From IMG/VR virus record IMGVR_UViG_2545824709_000011, positions 1-33,117 of that record: a stretch of 33,117 bases of DNA; one strand, 5' to 3'. Positions 1,363 through 29,228 of this stretch are shown in pieces. The DNA is from a virus (lineage: Duplodnaviria > Heunggongvirae > Uroviricota > Caudoviricetes). Both the position numbers and the translations under genes were made by a program. A model generated the notes under the pieces. The model did not search any database. It was not told where the DNA came from and saw only the letters and a program-made list of their open reading frames with translations. Positions within the stretch are counted from its first letter, which is position 1; the number at the start of each line of letters is the position of its first letter.

Positions 1363-1506
1363 TTAATTTCGATTATTTTTCCCGGATGGAAAATTCTTAG
1401 AAACCGATCACATACAGCTGCATTTATTAAGGTTATCATCCGTTTCGCTGAAAAACATAACCCATAAAATGCTAGCTGTACCAGGAACCACCTCCTTAGC
1501 CTGTGT

Positions 1507-1534
1507 AATCTCCCTTACACGGGCTTATTTTTTA
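1507..1534. repeat. attR core (ogr-proximal copy of the 28-bp att core repeat)
   Basis: Exact 28-bp match to 32615-32642; its reverse complement matches the P2 att core as I recall it (AAAAAATAAGCCCGTGTAAGGGAGATT). Confidence 0.85.
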
Positions 1535-8369: not shown

Positions 8370-8567
8370 GCGGTATTTCCGACCATTCAGGATTTGCAGG
8401 ATCCACACGACCAGAAAGACAGCTACTGATTAATCAGGCCAATAAACACATGAACACTAAGCAATAGCCCGGCAGGTCTGAGGTACTGGCGCAATATAAT
8501 TTGTGGCTGGATTACCTGTACGCACCGGAGCGGTCCGATACTTCCGGTACGTCAGATATTGAATGGT

Positions 8568-8978
8568 CTACGCCTCCGGCAGTTCAGGCCAGATGACATC
8601 CGGTGCGGTGCTGGTATCTGTTGCCGTCACAGCGTCGATATAATCCAGCACAACGTTAAGTCGGGTAGTTTCTTCTTGCGTCAGTTTGCGCCCGGCCTGC
8701 AGCTTTAACTGAATCACGCTGATATTGGCCATTGCTGCGTCTATCAGCGACTGTTTTTTCTGTTCAGCGTCAGCTACCAGTTCATCATGAGAACGTTCCG
8801 GAGGGAGCGGCGCAGTAAATACCCCGTCTGAATACCCCCAGCCGATTCCGGGATGCTCACTGATATCAGAAATATCAATGAGCTGCTGATTATCCGGCAC
8901 TGTGAATTCAGCCTCGCCATCCCAGACAATGACATTCACAACCATCCCATTTTCAATAACTGCATATGACGCATTCAT
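8568..8978 (-). CDS. Tail fiber assembly protein (gene G position)
   Basis: ORF immediately downstream of H with the TAATG stop/start overlap; start at MNASYAVIENG preferred over the upstream in-H ATG at 9002; length and position fit a tail-fiber chaperone. Confidence 0.75.
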   Translation of the reverse strand: MNASYAVIENGMVVNVIVWDGEAEFTVPDNQQLIDISDISEHPGIGWGYSDGVFTAPLPPERSHDELVADAEQKKQSLIDAAMANISVIQLKLQAGRKLTQEETTRLNVVLDYIDAVTATDTSTAPDVIWPELPEA

Positions 8979-12872: not shown

Positions 12873-13504
12873 AGAGGGCTCCCGGTTGTGCCGCCGCTGT
12901 CGCCGGGGTGTTTATGGGTATGCAGTACCTTACCGTTTGATGAGAGTTCACCGCCGGTGTGTTCAATGTTGCCGCGCATCGTCCCGCCCTTCTGCACTTC
13001 CAGCGTGCCGGTAATCAGCCTGTTGGTGCAGACCACCTCCGGTGTGTCCAGGGTGACGCGGGTTGATGCTTTCACCATGACCACCGGCACCGTGGCAGTA
13101 ACAGAATCAGAGGCCGTCACGCTGGCCGTTTTAATTCCGCTTACCGTAAGTGCACTGGTTTCGGGTTCATACTCAATCACCGCCCCGTCAGGGAAACGGA
13201 TATGCAGGGCATCCGCCGACGCAGACGGCGCGGGGTTATCGCCGGAATAAATCCCCGGCAGAACGAACGCCGTGTCGAGTTCACCGCCCACGGCCAGAAT
13301 CAGCACCTGTTCCCCCACGGAAGGTGCCCACCATGTGCGCGAACGCCCGGCGCGATGGGTCAGCCACTGAAGCCAGTCGGTGCACATGCCGCCGGTCTGC
13401 ACACGGCAGCGACCGGCGTTAAGGTCGGTTTCGACGACAATGCCGGTGCGTATCATGTTGCGCAGTGCGCGCGCGAGTTCCTGAATATTTGATAATGTGC
13501 TCAT
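12869..13504 (-). CDS. V: Baseplate spike/assembly protein V
   Basis: 211-aa product starting MSTLSNIQELARALRNMIRTG; ATG at 13504 chosen over the 234-aa ORF-track start. Confidence 0.85.
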   Translation of the reverse strand: MSTLSNIQELARALRNMIRTGIVVETDLNAGRCRVQTGGMCTDWLQWLTHRAGRSRTWWAPSVGEQVLILAVGGELDTAFVLPGIYSGDNPAPSASADALHIRFPDGAVIEYEPETSALTVSGIKTASVTASDSVTATVPVVMVKASTRVTLDTPEVVCTNRLITGTLEVQKGGTMRGNIEHTGGELSSNGKVLHTHKHPGDSGGTTGSPL

Positions 13505-13550
13505 ACGGCAATAATGAGAGATATATACTCGATAAACCATTACAACCCGT

Positions 13551-13568
13551 TGTATCATTTTTGGCACA
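13551..13568 (-). promoter_or_regulatory. Candidate Ogr-dependent late promoter element (TGT-N12-ACA) for the V operon
   Basis: Perfect dyad TGTATCATTTTTGGCACA 47-64 bp upstream of the V start; matches the P2/P4 late-promoter activator-site consensus as I recall it. Confidence 0.5.
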
Positions 13569-13587
13569 ATCAAGAAGGAACTGAAGT

Positions 13588-13788
13588 ATGGATAAATATC
13601 AAATCTGGGAAAATCAAAAAGACACCATCGTCCACCAAGAGTATTTAAAAATCTCCGACACCAATTTACTTGGACATATGCATATTGCCAATTATGAGGT
13701 GATTCAAAGTGAATTAAGCAAATTCAACTCTCCTAAAATTGTATTCCACTACTCACTTAATAGAAATGAATTAAAAAAGAGCACATAA
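13588..13788 (+). CDS. Hypothetical small protein (66 aa), AT-rich cargo between S and V
   Basis: ORF on the strand opposite to all flanking phage genes; GGAA-type ribosome-binding site about 8 nt upstream; codon usage visibly AT-rich. Confidence 0.45.
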   Translation: MDKYQIWENQKDTIVHQEYLKISDTNLLGHMHIANYEVIQSELSKFNSPKIVFHYSLNRNELKKST

Positions 13789-13949
13789 ATATATCAAGAC
13801 ATTTTCTCAACTATATCTCCTCAGCATTATCATTTAGAGATTCAACGCGAAATCTACATAAAATCAATGTATTAAATATTGATGATATTACCAATAAATC
13901 CAGAGAAATCATCAATGAAGAATTTTTAAAAAACCCAATCATAAAATTA

Positions 13950-14330
13950 ATGGAAGATTTAAGAAACATCCTAACCCATCAAAAAATGATCTCCCCATTA
14001 ATATCATCATTTATGCACCTCCAGAAAAAAATAAACATACACGGATTTGCATTTAAGATTGAAACCATACTGGAGAATGACCGGCTCTCTGGTAAATCAA
14101 AAGAATACCTGAAGTCAATAGAACAAAAAAATTTATTCATCTTGCCGATAATAGAGGAATACCAATACACAATTCTTAAATACCAGCACTGGCTTTTAGC
14201 TTGTATCCACAATGCTCATCAAAACACATATCCAGAATATTGGGAAGCAAGAAAAAACATAATGGACGTCTGGGGTGGAGATATCCAACTAATACCTGAA
14301 GAGAGTACCCTCACTTATTTGACCAGATAA
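13950..14330 (+). CDS. Hypothetical protein (126 aa), AT-rich cargo between S and V
   Basis: Second plus-strand ORF in the same AT-rich island, followed by a hairpin terminator; no recognisable motif; no obvious Shine-Dalgarno sequence. Confidence 0.45.
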   Translation: MEDLRNILTHQKMISPLISSFMHLQKKINIHGFAFKIETILENDRLSGKSKEYLKSIEQKNLFILPIIEEYQYTILKYQHWLLACIHNAHQNTYPEYWEARKNIMDVWGGDIQLIPEESTLTYLTR

Positions 14331-14363
14331 CAATCTAATTAGCTCATAAACATAAGACACCTT

Positions 14364-14395
14364 GGCCACGATATTTTATCGTGGCCTTATATGAT
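14364..14395 (+). terminator. Putative intrinsic terminator of the plus-strand cargo unit
   Basis: Stem GGCCACGAT(A) / (T)ATCGTGGCC with short loop, followed by TTATAT. Confidence 0.5.
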
Positions 14396-14543
14396 AAAGC
14401 GACTACCTTCGATGAGTCCTTATAACTCTCATCCACTGCACATTTTCAAGTTACAATTAAAGTTCATTTAGTTGAAATATAAAAAGGATGCCGCAAGAGG
14501 ATAATGGCGATATTTCATCAATAAGGCGCAAGAAATGGCACAA

Positions 14544-20744: not shown

Positions 20745-20917
20745 TGTCAGGAGTCCTGAATAGTGATTAGAGGAGTCACATGTCGGCATCAGTTTCCCGA
20801 CGATGCGCATCCTCCGCCATCAGTCCCGGATGGCTTATCACTGACACAACAGCACCTTAGCGAATCGCAGGGCGCGACTCAGTAGCCTTGCCGTGTATTC
20901 ATCACGGCGAGGTATTC

Positions 20918-22690
20918 ATGACCATCACCACAGACACCACTCTTTTACACGATCCGCGTCGTCAGGCGGCGCTGCTGTACTGGCAGGGGTTTTCCGTGCC
21001 GCAGATTGCCGCCATGTTGCAGATGAAACGCCCGACGGTGCAGAGCTGGAAACAGCGCGACGGCTGGGACAGCGTTGCCCCCATCAGCCGTGTCGAAATG
21101 AGTCTGGAAGCGCGGCTGACCCAGCTCATCATCAAACCGCAGAAAACCGGCGGTGACTTCAAGGAAATTGACCTGCTCGGACGCCAGATTGAACGGCTGG
21201 CACGGGTCAACCGTTACAGCCAGACCGGCAACGAGGCAGACCTTAATCCGAACGTCGCTAACCGCAACAAAGGCGGGCGTCGCAAACCGAAAAAGAATTT
21301 TTTCAGTGACGAGGCCATCGAAAAGCTGGAGCAGATTTTCTTTGAGCAGTCTTTCGAATATCAGTTGCACTGGTATCGCGCCGGGCTTGAGCACCGCATC
21401 CGCGATATCCTGAAATCCCGCCAGATTGGCGCAACGTATTATTTTTCCCGCGAGGCGCTGCTGCGCGCCCTGAAAACCGGTCATAACCAGATTTTTCTGT
21501 CAGCCAGTAAAACGCAGGCGTATGTGTTCCGCGAATACATCATCGCCTTTGCCCGTCTGGTTGACGTTGACCTGACCGGTGACCCGATTGTCCTGGGCAA
21601 TAACGGCGCAAAACTGATTTTTCTCGGCACCAACTCCAACACCGCACAGAGCCATAACGGCGACCTGTACGTCGACGAGATTTTCTGGATCCCGAATTTT
21701 CAGGTACTGCGTAAGGTGGCATCAGGTATGGCCTCACAGAGTCACCTGCGCTCGACCTATTTCTCCACCCCGTCCACGCTGGCGCACGACGCCTACCCGT
21801 TCTGGTCGGGTGAACTGTTCAACCGGGGACGCGCCAGCGCCGCCGAACGTGTGGAAATCGACGTCAGTCATAACGCCCTTGCCGGTGGGCTTCTCTGTGC
21901 GGACGGCCAGTGGCGGCAGATTGTCACCATTGAGGACGCCCTGAAAGGTGGCTGCACGCTGTTCGACATTGAGCAGCTTAAACGCGAAAACAGCGCCGAC
22001 GATTTTAAAAACCTGTTCATGTGTGAATTTGTTGACGACAAGGCGTCGGTGTTCCCGTTCGAGGAGCTGCAACGCTGCATGGTCGACACGCTGGAAGAAT
22101 GGGAAGACTATGCGCCGTTTGCCGCGAATCCGTTCGGCTCCCGCCCGGTCTGGATTGGTTACGACCCGTCACACCGTGGCGACAGCGCCGGATGCGTGGT
22201 ACTGGCACCGCCGGTAGTGGCCGGAGGCAAATTCAGAATACTTGAGCGTCACCAGTGGAAAGGCATGGACTTTGCCACCCAGGCGGAATCCATCCGCAAA
22301 CTCACCGAAAAATATAACGTCGAATACATCGGTATTGATGCCACCGGCCTCGGTGTCGGCGTGTTCCAGCTCGTGCGCTCGTTCTATCCCGCCGCGCGCG
22401 ATATCCGCTACACACCGGAAATGAAAACCGCAATGGTGCTCAAGGCAAAAGACGTTATCCGTCGTGGCTGTCTGGAATATGACGTCAGCGCCACCGACAT
22501 CACCAGCTCGTTTATGGCTATCCGCAAGACCATGACCAGCAGCGGACGCAGCGCCACCTATGAGGCCAGCCGCAGCGAGGAAGCCAGCCACGCCGACCTC
22601 GCCTGGGCGACCATGCACGCCCTGTTAAATGAGCCACTCACCGCCGGTATCAGCACCCCGCTGACATCCACCATTCTGGAGTTTTACTGA
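20918..22690 (+). CDS. P: Terminase large (ATPase) subunit P
   Basis: 590-aa product starting MTITTDTTLLHDPRRQAALLYWQGF; divergent from O; ATG at 20918 chosen over the track start at 20888. Confidence 0.9.
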   Translation: MTITTDTTLLHDPRRQAALLYWQGFSVPQIAAMLQMKRPTVQSWKQRDGWDSVAPISRVEMSLEARLTQLIIKPQKTGGDFKEIDLLGRQIERLARVNRYSQTGNEADLNPNVANRNKGGRRKPKKNFFSDEAIEKLEQIFFEQSFEYQLHWYRAGLEHRIRDILKSRQIGATYYFSREALLRALKTGHNQIFLSASKTQAYVFREYIIAFARLVDVDLTGDPIVLGNNGAKLIFLGTNSNTAQSHNGDLYVDEIFWIPNFQVLRKVASGMASQSHLRSTYFSTPSTLAHDAYPFWSGELFNRGRASAAERVEIDVSHNALAGGLLCADGQWRQIVTIEDALKGGCTLFDIEQLKRENSADDFKNLFMCEFVDDKASVFPFEELQRCMVDTLEEWEDYAPFAANPFGSRPVWIGYDPSHRGDSAGCVVLAPPVVAGGKFRILERHQWKGMDFATQAESIRKLTEKYNVEYIGIDATGLGVGVFQLVRSFYPAARDIRYTPEMKTAMVLKAKDVIRRGCLEYDVSATDITSSFMAIRKTMTSSGRSATYEASRSEEASHADLAWATMHALLNEPLTAGISTPLTSTILEFY

Positions 22691-23709
22691 TGAGCAAGAA
22701 AAAAGGGAAAACACCGCAACCTGCGGCAAAAAAAATGACCGCCAGCGCCCCGAAAATGGAGGCATTCACCTTTGGTGAGCCGGTGCCGGTACTCGACCGC
22801 CGTGACATTCTGGATTACGTCGAGTGCATCAGTAACGGCAGATGGTATGAGCCACCGGTCAGCTTTACCGGTCTGGCAAAAAGCCTGCGTGCTGCCGTGC
22901 ATCACAGCTCACCGATTTACGTCAAACGTAATATTCTGGCTTCAACGTTTATCCCGCACCCGTGGCTTTCCCAGCAGGATTTCAGCCGCTTTGTGCTGGA
23001 TTTTCTGGTGTTCGGTAATGCGTTTCTGGAAAAGCGATACAGCACCACCGGTAAGGTCATCAGACTGGAAACCTCACCGGCAAAATTTACCCGCCGTGGT
23101 GTGGAAGAGGATGTTTACTGGTGGGTGCCGTCCTTCAACGAGCCGACACCTTTCACGCCCGGCTCCGTGTTTCACCTGCTGGAGCCGGATATTAATCAGG
23201 AGCTGTACGGCCTGCCGGAATATCTCAGCGCCCTTAACTCTGCCTGGCTGAATGAGTCGGCCACGCTGTTCCGCCGCAAGTATTACGAAAATGGCGCTCA
23301 TGCCGGATATATCATGTACGTCACCGATGCCGTGCAGGACCGCAACGATATCGAAATGCTTCGCGAAAACATGGTCAAGTCGAAAGGCCGCAACAACTTT
23401 AAAAATCTGTTTCTCTATGCCCCACAGGGAAAAGCCGACGGCATTAAAATTATCCCGCTCAGTGAAGTGGCGACGAAGGACGATTTTTTTAATATCAAAA
23501 AAGCCAGCGCGGAAGATCTAATGAGTGCCCATCGAGTCCCCCCGCAAATGATGGGGATGATGCCTAATAATGCGGGAGGATTTGGCGATGTAGTTAAAGC
23601 GGCTAAAGTTTTTGTCAGGAATGAGTTAGGGCATCTACAATCGCGAATGAAGGAATTGAACTCATGGATAGGTGAAACAGTTATAACATTTAACAATTAC
23701 TCGTTATAA
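22690..23709 (+). CDS. Q: Portal protein Q
   Basis: 339-aa ORF; start overlaps the P stop (TGATG); last gene before the cos region. Confidence 0.9.
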   Translation: MSKKKGKTPQPAAKKMTASAPKMEAFTFGEPVPVLDRRDILDYVECISNGRWYEPPVSFTGLAKSLRAAVHHSSPIYVKRNILASTFIPHPWLSQQDFSRFVLDFLVFGNAFLEKRYSTTGKVIRLETSPAKFTRRGVEEDVYWWVPSFNEPTPFTPGSVFHLLEPDINQELYGLPEYLSALNSAWLNESATLFRRKYYENGAHAGYIMYVTDAVQDRNDIEMLRENMVKSKGRNNFKNLFLYAPQGKADGIKIIPLSEVATKDDFFNIKKASAEDLMSAHRVPPQMMGMMPNNAGGFGDVVKAAKVFVRNELGHLQSRMKELNSWIGETVITFNNYSL

Positions 23710-23715
23710 ACCCTG

Positions 23716-23739
23716 CAGGCTTTGGCTCACCAAAGCCTG
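23716..23739. terminator. Perfect 10-bp stem-loop between convergent Q and cargo operon (possible bidirectional terminator)
   Basis: CAGGCTTTGG-CTCA-CCAAAGCCTG lies exactly between the two convergent stop codons; weak U-tract on both sides. Confidence 0.45.
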
Positions 23740-23744
23740 TAAGA

Positions 23745-24362
23745 TCAAGCAGATAGGCAAAACGTTTCTGTTTGCCCCAAGTGTTCAAACACAGTAATCG
23801 ATGTTACTTTTCCGGCACTTATTTTGTTAAGGAACTTCAATATTTGTTGAGGCTCCTCCATGACTGCTGTTTTCTTGATTATAAATCCCTCAAGATTTTT
23901 CAAGCTGTATCGCTGACTTGAGTTCTCAAGAGCAGCAATCATTGCCGAACTGCGCATATCTCTATGTCCACTAGCTCTACAAACGACAGCATAATTTAAA
24001 TTAAGCTCTACAAAATTTTGCCTTGTCAACTCTGGAAGGTGTTTACATACAAAATGAAATAAAGTCGTAACACCTTCATGTATTTTCAACCTTATATCAT
24101 CCTTTTGTGAACGTCCTTCTTTAAATTCAATGAAGTACAATTTATCTTCATATAAAAATAAAGCATCCGGTGATTTTTCTTTAAACTCACGCTTATAAAC
24201 AGGCGAGCAATTTAACACCGTATCATAGTTAAAGCCCTTCGAATCACAAATAATAAAATTCCGAGCCCCTGCATCATTGTAGCTTAATCCGGTTACATCA
24301 ACCATTGAATCAGGGTATACTTCACACAGTTTTCTAAAAACAAGTTCCTCATTAGAAATCAT
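23745..24362 (-). CDS. Hypothetical 205-aa partner protein of the ATPase (candidate defence effector)
   Basis: ORF overlaps the upstream ATPase gene by 11 nt; AGGAG ribosome-binding site 8 nt upstream; AT-rich; contains a D...E-x-K-like stretch (LFLYEDKLYFIEFKEG) but no motif I can assign with confidence. Confidence 0.6.
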   Translation of the reverse strand: MISNEELVFRKLCEVYPDSMVDVTGLSYNDAGARNFIICDSKGFNYDTVLNCSPVYKREFKEKSPDALFLYEDKLYFIEFKEGRSQKDDIRLKIHEGVTTLFHFVCKHLPELTRQNFVELNLNYAVVCRASGHRDMRSSAMIAALENSSQRYSLKNLEGFIIKKTAVMEEPQQILKFLNKISAGKVTSITVFEHLGQTETFCLSA

Positions 24363-25680
24363 CCAAATACTCCTGATTCAATTCTTTTAATGGTGATGCC
24401 AAAAGATTAATTGCATATGCAACATTATCAGTAATATCAACAAAAGATGTAAACTCTTCCCCAGGGAATCGCTCGCTTATATAGAACCGATTTTCAATCC
24501 CAATTTTATCGCTATAATGTTTAAGAGCATCAATAATATACGGGCTATGTGTTGTAATTATTATATCAACCCCCATAGACACTAACTCACAAATAATCTC
24601 AGCATAGAAAACCTGCCATTTTGGATGTAAGTTCACCTCTGGCTCATCAATAATCAGTAACGAGTTATCTACTGCTGCCCCGCACTTAACAAGCATATCA
24701 AGAATACCTAAAGACTTTATTCCTGACGCAATATTACCCGATGTGACTTTATAGCCTTGCTTCTCTAGAAAAAAATCATTCTTTTCAATATCATAAACCA
24801 CTTCACCACAGAAAGTAGCATTGATTTTGTTAGATATACGCAGTGACTCTTTTAAAAATGAGCCATCATCAAAAATATCCGAATGCACAAATAAATTATA
24901 AACTGAATCGCTTAATTTTATTGATAGATCTTTCACATGCAATGGAACAGTTAGACGTCCTGATTCACCATTACTATCAAATAAAGTTTTAGCAAAACGA
25001 ACCAAATTATGAAATTGCATAATACTTGGAGAGTCAACATAGGTTGCGTCGACATATCCTAAACCATCAGTATAATCAAATTGTGATATACCATCTTTAG
25101 TCCATTTAATATCAATTAACTGACTAACACCATCAACAACTTCCAGAGATGCTTTAACTGGATTTTGATTACCCTTCTGAATAATTTCGCCTCTAAATTC
25201 AGAGTAAAAGGCCTTACGCAGAGCACGGTTGATAGCAGATAGCTCATCATCTGGCTCAAGCATTATATCTCTGATTTTTCTTATATCAGAGAGTACAGAA
25301 TCAGCCATCAATTCTGGAAGAAGCCCTTCCTCAATCAAATTATATAGATAACTCTCTCTCTCAGCCAAAGTTTTAGAGATATCTATTTTTAGAGAGGCAT
25401 AAAACTTTCTTGGATTGAATAACTCTCTAATTTCCGGCGTAGCAGCAATATTAATCCTCCTACGCAGATTAAAATATATTTTCTCTACGATAGATGTAAT
25501 TCTATCCTCTTTGTCTTCTTCTAAATCCTCTTGATAACGAGATATCGCCTTTACCATTGAAAACAATATTTTCCCTACGGTACTCTTCCCCGTATCATTT
25601 TCACCAGTTATGACAGTTAAACCACCAACTGAAACATCAGCTTCTGCAATAGTTCCAAAATTATTAATTTTTATACGCAT
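24352..25680 (-). CDS. ABC/OLD-family (AAA_15/AAA_21-like) ATPase, 442 aa (candidate defence ATPase)
   Basis: Walker A GENDTGKST near the N-terminus; long helical insert; C-terminal Walker B/D-loop LLIIDEPEVNLHP and H-loop IIITTHSP; AT-rich cargo between Q and cos. Confidence 0.7.
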   Translation of the reverse strand: MRIKINNFGTIAEADVSVGGLTVITGENDTGKSTVGKILFSMVKAISRYQEDLEEDKEDRITSIVEKIYFNLRRRINIAATPEIRELFNPRKFYASLKIDISKTLAERESYLYNLIEEGLLPELMADSVLSDIRKIRDIMLEPDDELSAINRALRKAFYSEFRGEIIQKGNQNPVKASLEVVDGVSQLIDIKWTKDGISQFDYTDGLGYVDATYVDSPSIMQFHNLVRFAKTLFDSNGESGRLTVPLHVKDLSIKLSDSVYNLFVHSDIFDDGSFLKESLRISNKINATFCGEVVYDIEKNDFFLEKQGYKVTSGNIASGIKSLGILDMLVKCGAAVDNSLLIIDEPEVNLHPKWQVFYAEIICELVSMGVDIIITTHSPYIIDALKHYSDKIGIENRFYISERFPGEEFTSFVDITDNVAYAINLLASPLKELNQEYLDDF

Positions 25681-25773
25681 AAACTATCTCACTGTACGCC
25701 AGATATCCAACCTTATGAATACTTTAGCATATTTCCAAAAAGATGACACTGGTGGTTGCAGGCCTCGCGCGCA

Positions 25774-25792
25774 GTGCTTTCCCCGCCTCGCC
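25774..25792. other. cos site (19-nt cohesive end sequence, reverse complement of GGCGAGGCGGGGAAAGCAC)
   Basis: Plus strand reads GTGCTTTCCCCGCCTCGCC, preceded by GCGCGCA; matches the P2 left cohesive end as I recall it. Confidence 0.8.
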
Positions 25793-26077
25793 CGCCCGCT
25801 TCACGGGGCGGTTTTAATGCAGTTGCATAGATACTATGGATCCGCACCAGTCCTGACCGCACGCAGCCTGAACGGACATCCCCAGCGCATGCAAAAACAT
25901 TCACTTGTTGCATGCATAGCTTTTTAAGTACGCCATACCGCAACTGTACATTTTTAAGCAATTGGCAACTTTAAAAAATTTACATTGCTTTCAAGACCTT
26001 ATCATCCGTAGTCTCTGTTTTTTACTTTGAGCTACATCAATAAAATCTCAAACATGTTTAATGCAAAGCCCTTGTTA

Positions 26078-26130
26078 CACAACATAGAATGTATGTCTAG
26101 AAACAACGACATACTATATGTTGTGTTTTT
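26078..26130 (+). terminator. Imperfect long hairpin followed by TTTTT (terminator-like or regulatory RNA structure)
   Basis: CACAACATA-GAATGTATGTC ... GACATAC-TATATGTTGTG then TTTTT. Confidence 0.4.
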
Positions 26131-26270
26131 CCGGCTCTCTGTTCGGTGATATGCCAAATCACTTTGCGTTTAAACAGAGCATTATTTCAGGGCAAGACTT
26201 CGCTCAAAAGTCATTCCACCTAAGAAGCGCATATACCGGTGGAAGTTGCCCTCTACTTACAGGAGGCAAT

Positions 26271-26384
26271 ATGAAGAAATGCTATTACTGCATTCTCGTT
26301 CTGGCCCTCTTTGGCTATCCAAACGGTAGTCCGAGTGGTTTGTCAGTAAACGTCAGTAATATCAATGTCAGCATTATGCTTTAA
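26271..26384 (+). CDS. Small hydrophobic peptide (37 aa), hypothetical
   Basis: ATG preceded by consensus AGGAGG with 4-nt spacer; product MKKCYYCILVLALFGYPNGSPSGLSVNVSNINVSIML; strong terminator directly downstream; internal start preferred over the 88-aa track ORF. Confidence 0.45.
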   Translation: MKKCYYCILVLALFGYPNGSPSGLSVNVSNINVSIML

Positions 26385-26395
26385 TATGCTTCAAA

Positions 26396-26427
26396 CAAAA
26401 AAACCACCTGCCAGGGTGGTTTTTTTG
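26396..26427. terminator. Bidirectional rho-independent terminator (A-tract, hairpin, T-tract)
   Basis: AAAAAAACCACC-TGCCAG-GGTGGTTTTTTT; serves the small plus-strand ORF and, on the minus strand, lies about 260 bp past the gene A stop. Confidence 0.75.
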
Positions 26428-26686
26428 CGCCCATCATCAATACGATGAAAGACTGACAAGACTTCGCTCAAGACGAATTATGCGTCGACATAAGGTTACC
26501 CGCAATGATTTTATTAGACTAAATGGATGGCCTTTTATGACCCGGATCAAACGGCTGTCCTTACCGACATGCTAGTCACTCAATAGCATTTAGCCTTCTA
26601 ATTCAGCATGCTATTGACCTTCTGCTGCCCCATAACTGCTCCGCATAAGCCATTCAATGCCATATCAAATCACGTTGTGTTTTTAC

Positions 26687-28963
26687 TCAAATGGGTAACG
26701 AGAACCCCGGCCACTCATCAGCAACCGGATACGTGAATTTTTTCCCGTCATAATTTACGGTCGCGCCACGCGCCAGCGCCTCAAGCTCCCATCGTTGCGG
26801 CCTGATACCGTTCTGAGCGAGGTCAACGCGGATACGGGTAATTTGCAATCGTTCAGACCTGGTCAGTCTGGCAGATGGTGCAATTTCATGCGGTTTTAAC
26901 GGGATTCCGTTTCTTTGCTGACGATTTGGTGTTCTCAGTCCGTGTTTTAATGCGCCCCTGAGCACCATCACTACCTCCGGGTCACTCCATTCGATAACAC
27001 CGTCATCTACCAGATTAAGCACTGCTGCGGCGTGCTCAGAAGGTGTGGGAGCCGGTAACGAAGTATCACCACCGGTGAGCTTTCCACAGTTATTGACAGG
27101 ACTCCGAGGCGCGGCGATGCCGCTTTTTAAAGTTAAAGGCTCCACGACCGGAACTTTCGGAACAATGCGCCAGTCCGTCGTTCTGGTGATATGAATATGA
27201 CGCGCGCCGAGATGCGGCGCGTAAATGCCGACCACTCTCTCGACTTCTTCCTCGTACTCGTTAACTTCATCCGACGGGCTACGGGCGACTCTGACAGTCT
27301 GGCAATCGCGCGGAACATTTGCCCCACCCTGCGCACTGATATACAACGCAAAATCGCCACTGTCTGCGGCAGCGCGTGCAGCCTCGACGCGTTCGTCAAA
27401 CTCATCAGCAATGCTGACGCCGCGAGGCAATTTGCGTAGTTCACGGTAAGCCCCCATTGTCGGCAGACCAACCGTTTTAAATTGCGGGATGCGCCACGTT
27501 GACGCCCATGCAGTAACAGCCGCGGCAGTATCTTTCAGAGGTCTGCCGGTATCGTTATCGAGCTGACCATCCAGTGCATAGCCGTCGATATTTTTTGAAA
27601 TGTATTTCGCGATATACCCCGCAGCACCGCCCCGGTTAAGGTGTTTCGCCTGAAAACGGTTTCGCTCGGCTCCTCTTTCGTCGCCATCCTCTTTGAGCGC
27701 GTAGCGACGCATGGTTTCGATAATCTGGTTACGCTGACGTGGATTACAAAAAAGCATCATATGCCAGTGCGGCGTTCCGTCGTGGTGTGGCTCGACGACA
27801 CGCAAACCGTAGACCTGTAAATCATTATCCTTGAATGCCGTGCGCATCAGGCTCCAGATGCGGCAGAGATAACGCTGCGCATCCTTTGGATTAAATGCCT
27901 CATCGTTCCAGCCGTGATTTAGCTGGACGGTTTTACTTTCACCTTTTCCGACCTGACGTGTCGGGTGATACTTTGACGGCGCGGTCAGCGTGATAAACAT
28001 CCCCACATCACCCTCTGCGGCGGCGTAACGCTCAATACCGGCAATGGTGTTCATCAGCTCCATCCGGCGAATTTCAGGATTAGAAATACTTCCCATCACC
28101 TTACTGATAAGGTCGATGCGCTCGCCGGTTTCCCTGTTTTCAAGGTCACACGATTTAAGAAATTCCAGATTTGCCTGGCGGCGCGCACGCACATCACGAA
28201 TGGCATGTTTACTGGCATAAGGAGAACGGTCTTTATTCACCTCCCCGACAGCAATCAGTAACGCCTCATGCCAGCGCATACGCTGACCTTTAAGCTGATG
28301 AGTCCACCACTCATCGTTAAACAGACGGGCAATGGCAGAATATGCCTGCCTCGTGGTCATCTGTCCTTTACGGTATTTTTTCCAGTAGAGAGGGGAAATA
28401 TTGAAAGCTCGTGCAGCGCCAGCAACATGACCATACAGATGCGCCTGAGCCTCATCCGTAAACAGCGATTCTTTCTCGCCATGTGCATCAACCCATGCAT
28501 CGCAGAGTTCCTCATACATCATGAAAAGCTGCGATGAGATACGGGCGGCAAACTTTTTCAGTTCCTTGTCATTCATCCCCGGCAGACGCGCATAATGGTC
28601 ACGCTCTGCCAGAAACAGCAACGACGCGTCGGTGTTCATTTCATGGCGCTGATTCACGCGCTCAATGCGCGGCCATAAACGACGCTGAAAAGTGGATGTG
28701 AGGAAATAAAACCCGTGCACCGGGCTTTTATTGCGCCGGATGTAGTCATAGCGTGAAGTAAACAGCGAGCGCAAAAAGTAAGGCAGGCGGTTAATCGTGG
28801 ATAAAACACCTTGCACCTGACGCATCTCGTCACGTGTAAGGGGTCTTTCGCGCCCGACAGCCTCGCGTGGCGCGTTCCATGCATAAGCACCGGTAAACGC
28901 CTTACCGGTGCCTGCGGCAAATGCTGATGGAGGGACAAAACGCCCGGAGGCTTTAACGGCCAT
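26687..28963 (-). CDS. A: Replication initiation protein A (rolling-circle endonuclease)
   Basis: About 758-aa product starting MAVKASGRFVPPSAFAAGTGK; the ORF-track start 14 codons upstream is a TTG, so ATG at 28963 is preferred. Confidence 0.85.
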   Translation of the reverse strand: MAVKASGRFVPPSAFAAGTGKAFTGAYAWNAPREAVGRERPLTRDEMRQVQGVLSTINRLPYFLRSLFTSRYDYIRRNKSPVHGFYFLTSTFQRRLWPRIERVNQRHEMNTDASLLFLAERDHYARLPGMNDKELKKFAARISSQLFMMYEELCDAWVDAHGEKESLFTDEAQAHLYGHVAGAARAFNISPLYWKKYRKGQMTTRQAYSAIARLFNDEWWTHQLKGQRMRWHEALLIAVGEVNKDRSPYASKHAIRDVRARRQANLEFLKSCDLENRETGERIDLISKVMGSISNPEIRRMELMNTIAGIERYAAAEGDVGMFITLTAPSKYHPTRQVGKGESKTVQLNHGWNDEAFNPKDAQRYLCRIWSLMRTAFKDNDLQVYGLRVVEPHHDGTPHWHMMLFCNPRQRNQIIETMRRYALKEDGDERGAERNRFQAKHLNRGGAAGYIAKYISKNIDGYALDGQLDNDTGRPLKDTAAAVTAWASTWRIPQFKTVGLPTMGAYRELRKLPRGVSIADEFDERVEAARAAADSGDFALYISAQGGANVPRDCQTVRVARSPSDEVNEYEEEVERVVGIYAPHLGARHIHITRTTDWRIVPKVPVVEPLTLKSGIAAPRSPVNNCGKLTGGDTSLPAPTPSEHAAAVLNLVDDGVIEWSDPEVVMVLRGALKHGLRTPNRQQRNGIPLKPHEIAPSARLTRSERLQITRIRVDLAQNGIRPQRWELEALARGATVNYDGKKFTYPVADEWPGFSLPI

Positions 28964-29228
28964 ATGAGCCAAAAGCCTCTGAACAACGCTTGCTGAGTTG
29001 CTCAACCTGCGCGTTTAAATCAGCAAAAGACTTTGCGCTTCCGGTCAGAATATCGTGATGCATCATGCCGGAAACGAGCTGGCTTAATTTCGGGTAATAA
29101 CCAACCACCGACAGCCATTCCTGACCGGCGTTTTTACCGCTTTCCGCTCTCTTTTTCTCGTGGAGAATAAACTGAAAGCTGTCACTGGTAACGACATAAC
29201 GTTCGCCAATTTCAATACGAATACTCAT
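28953..29228 (-). CDS. Early-operon small protein (P2 orf83 position)
   Basis: 91-aa ORF between orf82-like and A; synteny only. Confidence 0.6.
   Translation of the reverse strand: MSIRIEIGERYVVTSDSFQFILHEKKRAESGKNAGQEWLSVVGYYPKLSQLVSGMMHHDILTGSAKSFADLNAQVEQLSKRCSEAFGSYGR

Follow-up and report, generated by a model that had tools for sequence, protein, structure and literature searches.

We analyzed a window of 33,117 nucleotides (nt), corresponding to positions 1 to 33,117 of IMG/VR record IMGVR_UViG_2545824709_000011. It is a P2-like prophage of Escherichia coli that carries, between the portal gene Q and the cohesive-end site cos, a minus-strand operon of two genes encoding an ATP-binding cassette (ABC) ATPase of 442 amino acids (aa) and a partner protein of 205 aa. 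Our results make it probable that this operon is a horizontally acquired two-gene defense cassette directed against phages (or mobile elements), carried as a moron in the P2-like cos-proximal hotspot. Judged by its sequence motifs, the first gene product is an ABC ATPase of the OLD/PtuA-like group in which no catalytic motif is disrupted. The alignment and structural model of the partner identify it as a minimal PD-(D/E)xK (restriction-endonuclease-fold) protein, a predicted nuclease and the presumed effector of the operon.

One reason for this reading is the location of the operon. The gpQ-gpA region near cos is a P2 defense hotspot, as demonstrated experimentally (Rousset 2022, PMC9122126; Vassallo 2022, PMC9519451), and the operon has what characterizes the cargo of this hotspot, insofar as it lies between Q and A, near cos, and varies among related prophages. 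A further reason is the combination of a full ABC ATPase motif set with a PD-x12-ExK partner whose predicted fold is restriction-endonuclease-like.

Protein sequences and predicted structures

The ATPase displays Walker A as GENDTGKST (K32), a signature N316-x-A-S-G-x-K322, Walker B as LLIIDEPEVNLHP (D345/E346) with an OLD-type D-loop (PEVNLHP), an H-loop ITTHSP (H378) and a candidate Q-loop at Q222. The Walker A, Walker B and H-loop strings had been pointed out in the original prediction, which was made from the sequence alone, and all of them are present. Among 46 homologs with 36-80% identity, K32, N316/A318/G320, D345-E346-P347-E348, L351-H352-P353 and H378-S379-P380 are invariant. The Pfam families AAA_15 (69.1 bits, cutoff 32.1) and AAA_21 (68.2 bits, cutoff 27) both match above their gathering scores. 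The AlphaFold (AF2) model, with a mean predicted local distance difference test (pLDDT) score of 86.5, consists of an ABC head with a helical insert (residues ~47-162), a beta insert (~177-215) and a short C-terminal extension (~397-439; beta-hairpin plus helix). According to Foldseek the nearest solved folds are PtuA (from Septu and retron I-A), Rad50/SMC heads and OLD, at probability 1.0 and an expectation value (E) of about 5e-9 with a TM-score of only about 0.4, and the sequence match to OLD, AriA and PtuA chains is confined to the motif regions. The earlier assignment to the OLD-type ABC class is thus upheld by both Pfam and Foldseek. The absence of a fused nuclease, also claimed there, agrees with Pfam, where no TOPRIM, HNH or other fused nuclease domain was found, and with the AlphaFold model, which has no extra nuclease domain.

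In PADLOC the best match of the ATPase was HEC-02A (1.8e-33), followed by PD-T4-4_A (1.7e-30); both are partial, covering residues 273-396 against positions 172-295 of the 338-position profile in the first case and residues 274-384 in the second. Matches to the Old and ATPase-Toprim models were restricted to the Walker B/H-loop region. In PHROGs, which includes both families of the operon, the ATPase belongs to phrog_14430, of unknown function.

The original prediction could assign no motif to the partner, and this did not survive alignment of the family, which revealed an invariant P65-D66, then 12 residues, then E79-F80-K81-x-G83, followed by R91-x-K93-I-H-E. The predicted active site comprises D66, E79 and K81, with conserved K93/H95/E96 on the next helix. 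In the AlphaFold model (pLDDT 83.9) D66 starts a strand (67-71), ExK lies in a second strand (74-81) and a long helix follows. The partner thereby displays the two features by which the PD-(D/E)xK superfamily is recognized, namely an acidic residue where core strand 2 begins and (D/E)xK within strand 3 of an alpha-beta-beta-beta-alpha-beta core, and the predicted fold resembles restriction-endonuclease-like nucleases. Weak echoes, in both sequence and fold, were seen of the cap-snatching endonucleases of arenaviruses and bunyaviruses. Profile searches of both proteins and a structure prediction for the partner had been proposed as checks in the original prediction; apart from AAA_15/AAA_21 on the ATPase, the former returned no RloB/DUF4276, DUF4435 or HNH on the partner, and the latter yielded the nuclease fold described above rather than TOPRIM.

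Nothing above noise was obtained for the partner in Pfam, NCBIfam or PADLOC, and a sequence search of the Protein Data Bank with the partner profile gave chance matches only. The close family is small (64 clusters among 5.8 billion), all of its members are ~200 aa long and unnamed, and they are gammaproteobacterial in every case with a named source organism. A wider superfamily emerged when the partner profile was compared with 1.84 billion representative proteins (50%-identity cluster representatives), with 618 matches at E <= 1e-3. Of these, 26 are close relatives, the remainder forming a long tail of 175-200-aa proteins. D66, E79 and K93 do not vary among 110 superfamily members, and S27, D47, F80 and K81 each reach at least 90% conservation; no Pfam family covers these proteins. 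Among the weak PADLOC matches of these 110 proteins the HEC-02B models were the commonest (14, 12 and 6 members; best 1.5e-5), followed by Cas4, PDC-M29B and NERD. The weak HEC-02B and NERD matches of distant relatives suggest that the partner is distantly related to the NERD-like nuclease of HEC-02, too remotely for current models to recognize. These matches, together with HEC-02A and PD-T4-4_A as the best matches of the ATPase, favor the defense reading. Two distant members were inspected at their loci, and both follow directly after an ATPase of ~445 aa with AAA_15/AAA_21, stop and start overlapping. One of these loci adjoins AbiH, and a comparison of one of the two ATPases with that of the window gave 33% identity over its full length.

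Distribution and selection

The operon is variable, rare accessory cargo of P2-like prophages. It was found in 8 of 5426 complete E. coli genomes, compared with 1658 genomes (1920 places) that have the conserved part of Q, so that over 99% of the P2-like portal loci in E. coli lack it (operon at 8/1920 places). The locus comparison suggested in the original prediction therefore shows that the operon is not conserved in all P2-like phages, and the view of the locus as variable cargo in a cos-proximal defense hotspot agrees with these counts and with the published experiments (Rousset 2022; Vassallo 2022). Both open reading frames (ORFs) are intact in all eight E. coli copies, at 96.7-100% identity. 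No match to the operon or the partner was obtained by megablast and tblastn against 50,697 phage records.

Outside E. coli, the same pair occupies the same place in the same orientation in P2-like prophages of Leclercia, Pectobacterium and Yersinia (partner identity 83%, 61% and 59%, respectively), where a cos-like sequence lies upstream of the ATPase gene and the pair is convergent with Q. In a P2-like prophage of Klebsiella, the same hotspot is occupied by a pair that is 51%/42% identical and inverted. Elsewhere the pair was found beside a Tn5-type transposase in Pseudomonas and beside integrases in Vibrio vulnificus, in the metagenome-assembled genome of an uncultured gammaproteobacterium and in a Cronobacter prophage, and in these four loci an ATPase of ~430-443 aa directly precedes the partner. 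The stop/start overlap ATGAyTTCTAA is conserved in the Leclercia, Pectobacterium, Yersinia, Pseudomonas, Vibrio and Cronobacter loci, as is the Shine-Dalgarno sequence. A pairing that is conserved and mobile across genera, and that in a distant relative lies next to AbiH, argues for defense.

Both genes have a G+C content (GC) of ~0.32-0.44 whatever the host, despite very different host GC. The accessory character of the operon, along with its GC of 0.34 in hosts of very different GC, likewise supports the defense reading. Nonsynonymous divergence (dN) in both genes is 0.12-0.5 and synonymous divergence (dS) is saturated, for which reason dN/dS cannot be expressed as a ratio for most pairs. 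Since dN is far below the saturated dS, both genes are under strong purifying selection, which also speaks for a defense function.

Locus organization and module boundaries

The coordinates of the two ORFs and their 11-nt overlap are exactly as originally predicted. The features of the locus are as follows.

20888-22690, plus strand: terminase gene P (ORF)
22690-23709, plus strand: portal gene Q (ORF), ending at 23709
23520-23709, plus strand: divergent, AT-richer 3' end of Q, ~190 bp (about 63 codons), left recombination boundary
23716-23739: perfect 10-bp stem-loop, CAGGCTTTGG-CTCA-CCAAAGCCTG, between the convergent stops of Q and the partner gene
23745-24362, minus strand: partner gene (ORF), 205 aa, WP_000624949
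24352-24362, minus strand: ATPase/partner overlap of 11 nt, GATGATTTCTAA, ATPase stop over partner start
24352-25680, minus strand: ATPase gene (ORF), 442 aa, WP_001220547
25721-25749, minus strand: putative sigma-70 promoter of the operon, with -35 GTGTCA (25749-25744), a 17-nt spacer and an extended -10 TGcTAAAGT (25729-25721)
25774-25792, minus strand: P2 cos 19-nt cohesive-end sequence, exact match to P2 (0.01 chance matches expected)
26687-29005: replication gene A (ORF)

Over the queried region the window is 100% identical to strain 600468 (NZ_CP025849), in which the integration site of the prophage adjoins yegR. The operon, placed between Q and cos, is convergent with Q. The distance from Q to cos is 2064 bp in the window versus 167 bp in P2 (P2 cosL at 1-19, Q stop at 187), and GC is 0.34-0.35 over the operon (24001-25500) versus 0.51-0.58 over the flanking P and Q (21001-23500), in line with the insertion of about 2 kb of AT-rich DNA that had been noticed at first reading. 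An AGGAG Shine-Dalgarno sequence lies 7 nt 5' of the partner ATG, inside the overlap, and together with the 11-nt overlap it implies translational coupling of the partner gene to the ATPase gene.

The putative promoter lies between cos and the ATPase gene, ~40 nt 5' of the ATPase start codon and 25 nt inside cos. Upstream of the ATPase start the only stretches conserved among the E. coli, Leclercia, Pectobacterium and Yersinia loci are TGCTAAAGT and the GTGTCA blocks, and we infer that the promoter at 25721-25749 drives the operon. At the other end, the stem-loop at 23716-23739 (RNA fold -21.4 kcal/mol, z = -2.5), after which UUUAUAA follows on the minus strand, looks like a terminator for the operon, in place of the terminator tQ that is annotated at the equivalent position in P2. 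An Rfam scan of 23600-26800 gave nothing real.

The boundaries of the imported DNA can be placed on both sides. On the left, megablast matches to other P2-like phages end at about 23519. The portal protein is 91% identical to P2 gpQ overall, with the differences clustered in the C-terminal ~63 codons in both protein and DNA alignments, and the divergent Q tail occurs in exactly the same eight E. coli genomes as the operon. On the right, alignment with the left end of P2 shows that Q-side similarity ends ~10 nt past the cos 19-mer (about 25764). The divergent tail and the end of similarity near cos point to an imported module spanning ~23520-25764, exchanged within the 3' end of Q and beside cos, and the alignments thus locate a recombination breakpoint inside the essential structural gene Q. 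Module exchange in P2-like phages is thereby documented for a cassette that moves with a divergent portal-gene 3' end. Moreover, a cassette boundary ~10 bp from cos indicates that the Q side of cos accepts cargo, and not the tin/old side alone.

Other features of the window

A CyaR/RyeE small RNA gene (1445-1530, plus strand; Rfam RF00112, 100.7 bits, E 3e-19) lies near the left end of the window, which makes that end probably chromosomal flank beside the prophage. In E. coli K-12, cyaR presumably adjoins a P2-type remnant.

Between the baseplate gene V and the virion morphogenesis gene there is a second AT-rich island (13500-14500, GC 0.30-0.36). It contains two plus-strand ORFs, 13588-13788 (66 aa) and 13950-14330 (126 aa), which are hypothetical, also in RefSeq, and have no PADLOC match. 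The island may represent a further site for morons or cargo.

On the A side of cos, a plus-strand ORF at 26271-26384 encodes a hydrophobic protein of 37 aa (MKKCYYCILVLALFGYPNGS...). The ORF is preceded by AGGAGG, a strong ribosome-binding site, and downstream of it, at 26395-26420, lies a GC-rich hairpin with a T-run. About 740 bp around the ORF are 86-88% identical to other P2-like phages, in which no gene is annotated there, and the region has no PADLOC or Rfam match. The product could be a small membrane peptide or toxin.

Downstream of the tail fiber gene, at ~8486-8918, RefSeq annotates two partial tail-fiber-assembly pseudogenes in opposite orientation (identical prophage, L001 4787-5219). 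The pair may be a remnant of an invertible or shuffled tail-fiber segment.

Proposed function and alternative explanations

Experimental precedents add to the case for defense, in particular HEC-02 and WonAB. HEC-02 (Hma-embedded candidate 02) pairs the ABC ATPase HEC-02A with the NERD-like PD-(D/E)xK nuclease HEC-02B, and both genes are required for defense (Payne et al. 2024 preprint, 10.1101/2024.01.29.577857). WonAB, from the Vibrio cholerae WASA-1 prophage, depends on residues of both ATPase and nuclease and brings about abortive infection through translation arrest, leaving DNA intact, as reported by Adams et al. A third system, PD-T4-4, consists of an ATPase and a PD-(D/E)xK nuclease on an element resembling an integrative and conjugative element (Vassallo et al. 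2022, PMC9519451); this system assembles into higher-order complexes, and in vitro no cleavage of DNA by it was seen.

If WonAB, HEC-02, PD-T4-4 and PARIS are taken as analogs, the ATPase would form a head-to-head dimer around ATP (an ATP sandwich) and would bind the nuclease, probably via its C-terminal extension. The variable inserts (helical 47-162, beta 177-215) might sense an infection cue, upon which ATP binding or hydrolysis would license or release the nuclease, and cleavage of nucleic acid by the latter would abort the infection. Because WonAB leaves DNA intact and PD-T4-4 does not cut it in vitro, an RNA target (tRNA or rRNA) appears at least as likely as DNA.

Several observations weigh against this reading. 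Complex formation and substrate are pure analogy. No PADLOC B-component model matches the partner at E <= 0.1, except PDC-M29B at 0.031. Neither the DefensePredictor supplements nor the WonAB hit list contains the partner family (its motif YFIEFKEG does not occur in the authors' table), and none of the libraries searched gives the ATPase-partner family a defense name. Cargo other than defense also occurs in the P2 hotspot, for example partition systems at about 25% and cytolethal distending toxin at about 2%. A consensus promoter scan, moreover, missed the block at 25721-25749, and its yield was no richer than that of shuffled sequence. As to earlier work, Table S5A of Rousset 2022 (PMC9122126) contains this very pair, WP_001220547 + WP_000624949, under the entry 'AAA_15/AAA_15/AAA_21 + hypothetical'. 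The sole AAA_15/AAA_21 entries in the HHpred table of that study are two PARIS systems, so the pair was apparently outside its tested set. A text search for both WP accessions found no paper.

Four other explanations were considered. It is unlikely that the family represents a distinct defense system, and not a divergent form of HEC-02 or WonAB, with its own trigger and an RNA-directed PD-(D/E)xK effector, whose cos-portal placement reflects a functional link. Such a link, for which the placement at the cos-portal junction in four P2-like genera and the promoter 25 nt from the cohesive end can be cited, could for example involve sensing of foreign terminase or packaging activity, or policing of P4-like satellites that reuse the same cos. 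Quite unlikely is a toxin-antitoxin or addiction module that stabilizes the prophage or island, in which the ATPase restrains a nuclease toxin with no dedicated phage sensing. A small nuclease tightly coupled to a larger partner and carried on several kinds of mobile elements would suit such a module, as would the Pfam label of AAA_21 ('putative AbiEii toxin, Type IV TA') and the toxicity of overproduced WonB. The latter, however, occurs only with active WonA (Adams et al.), and toxicity that needs the ATPase rather than being neutralized by it runs counter to simple toxin-antitoxin logic for this architecture. In addition, the ATPase gene comes first and its product is larger and sensor-like, with variable inserts, while many modules of this kind are defense systems anyway and would overlap with the reading that we prefer.

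A role in the P2-like phage's own cycle (a Rad50/SbcC-like function at DNA ends, in recombination or in packaging), or as a weapon against P4-like satellites or the host, is very unlikely. It is true that the operon borders on cos and the portal gene, that P2-like prophages of four genera have it at this junction, and that the ATPase fold resembles Rad50/SMC heads. But as over 99% of the P2-like portal loci in E. coli lack the operon, it is dispensable for the phage cycle, and on this ground we rejected a core phage function. The same pair also exists outside P2-like phages, near unrelated integrases or transposases, and neither Pfam nor the model indicates a coiled-coil/zinc-hook or an Mre11-type partner. 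Hardly credible, finally, is that the operon is cargo in decay, or silent, and at present functionless. H-NS tends to silence AT-rich DNA of this kind in E. coli, and the consensus scan gave no strong promoter. Against this, both ORFs are intact in every E. coli copy, all catalytic residues are the same from genus to genus, dN lies well below dS, and the start/stop overlap and Shine-Dalgarno sequence have been retained.

If the defense function is confirmed, a functional label would become available for the partner superfamily (618 representatives), which at present has no Pfam, NCBIfam or PADLOC model. Current thinking on the mechanism of such systems would stay unchanged.

Comparison with known systems

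The original prediction compared the operon with AbiL/RloB, PARIS (AriB) and Septu (PtuB), and these comparisons fail at the partner, which is neither TOPRIM/DUF4435 nor HNH. PARIS, Septu, P2 Old and Gabija GajA share with the operon an ABC ATPase of the OLD/PtuA-like group, used as sensor or scaffold. The AriA, PtuA and Old models match the C-terminal motifs of our ATPase, PtuA is its closest solved fold, and P2 Old and tin share the P2 hotspot with the operon. The effectors differ, being TOPRIM in AriB (DUF4435), Old and GajA, HNH in PtuB, and a separate PD-(D/E)xK protein here. Accordingly, PARIS was rejected because the partner has no DUF4435 or TOPRIM match in Pfam or PADLOC and a PD-(D/E)xK fold, and Septu because it has PD-(D/E)xK in place of an HNH signal. 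AbiL/RloB was rejected because no RloB/DUF4276-type or AbiLii match was found at E <= 0.1 in Pfam, NCBIfam or PADLOC, and a Class 1/2 OLD nuclease such as P2 Old because the ATPase ends at residue 442 with no fused TOPRIM.

HEC-02 resembles the operon as a two-gene system in which the gene for a small (D/E/Q)xK nuclease comes after that for an ABC ATPase. It differs in that the HEC-02A match covers only the C-terminal half of our ATPase, which is ~100 aa longer and has other inserts. HEC-02B, furthermore, does not match the partner at E <= 0.1 (only distant relatives match, at 1e-5 to 1e-3), and HEC-02 is embedded in a Hma system whereas our operon resides in a prophage hotspot. PD-T4-4 belongs to the same architecture class, and its lack of DNA cleavage in vitro fits a licensed or non-DNA-targeting nuclease, but it is found in another mobile-element context. 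Membership in PD-T4-4 was rejected, as the A model matches the ATPase only partially and the B model (PD-T4-4_B) does not match the partner at all.

WonAB is likewise a prophage-borne operon of two genes, an OLD-type ABC ATPase followed by a small PD-(D/E)xK nuclease, and the D...ExK-G motif of WonB aligns with that of the partner. WonB homologs are, however, about 140-155 aa long (Supplementary Table 4; V. cholerae WonB, 16.1 kDa) compared with 205 aa for the partner, and WonA has R182 where our ATPase family has the candidate Q-loop Q222. Membership in WonAB was rejected on both components. For the nuclease, hhalign of the partner family against eight WonB homologs was not significant (probability 2.3%, E 0.02), the aligned residues being the D and ExK motifs. 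For the ATPase, BLAST against a WonA homolog aligned only ~100 + 38 residues (Walker A; signature-to-H-loop). By analogy, WonAB nevertheless offers the best mechanistic model for the operon.

The original prediction allowed for either a variant or a new pairing. The former stands, but a new architecture does not, since HEC-02, WonAB and PD-T4-4 were already known. What is new is the partner family, recognized by no Pfam, NCBIfam or PADLOC model, while the architecture itself is already established. In conclusion, the closest characterized analogs are HEC-02, WonAB and PD-T4-4, all of which combine an ABC ATPase with a separate nuclease of the restriction-endonuclease fold, and the operon is very probably a sequence-divergent variant of this known defense class rather than a new kind of system.

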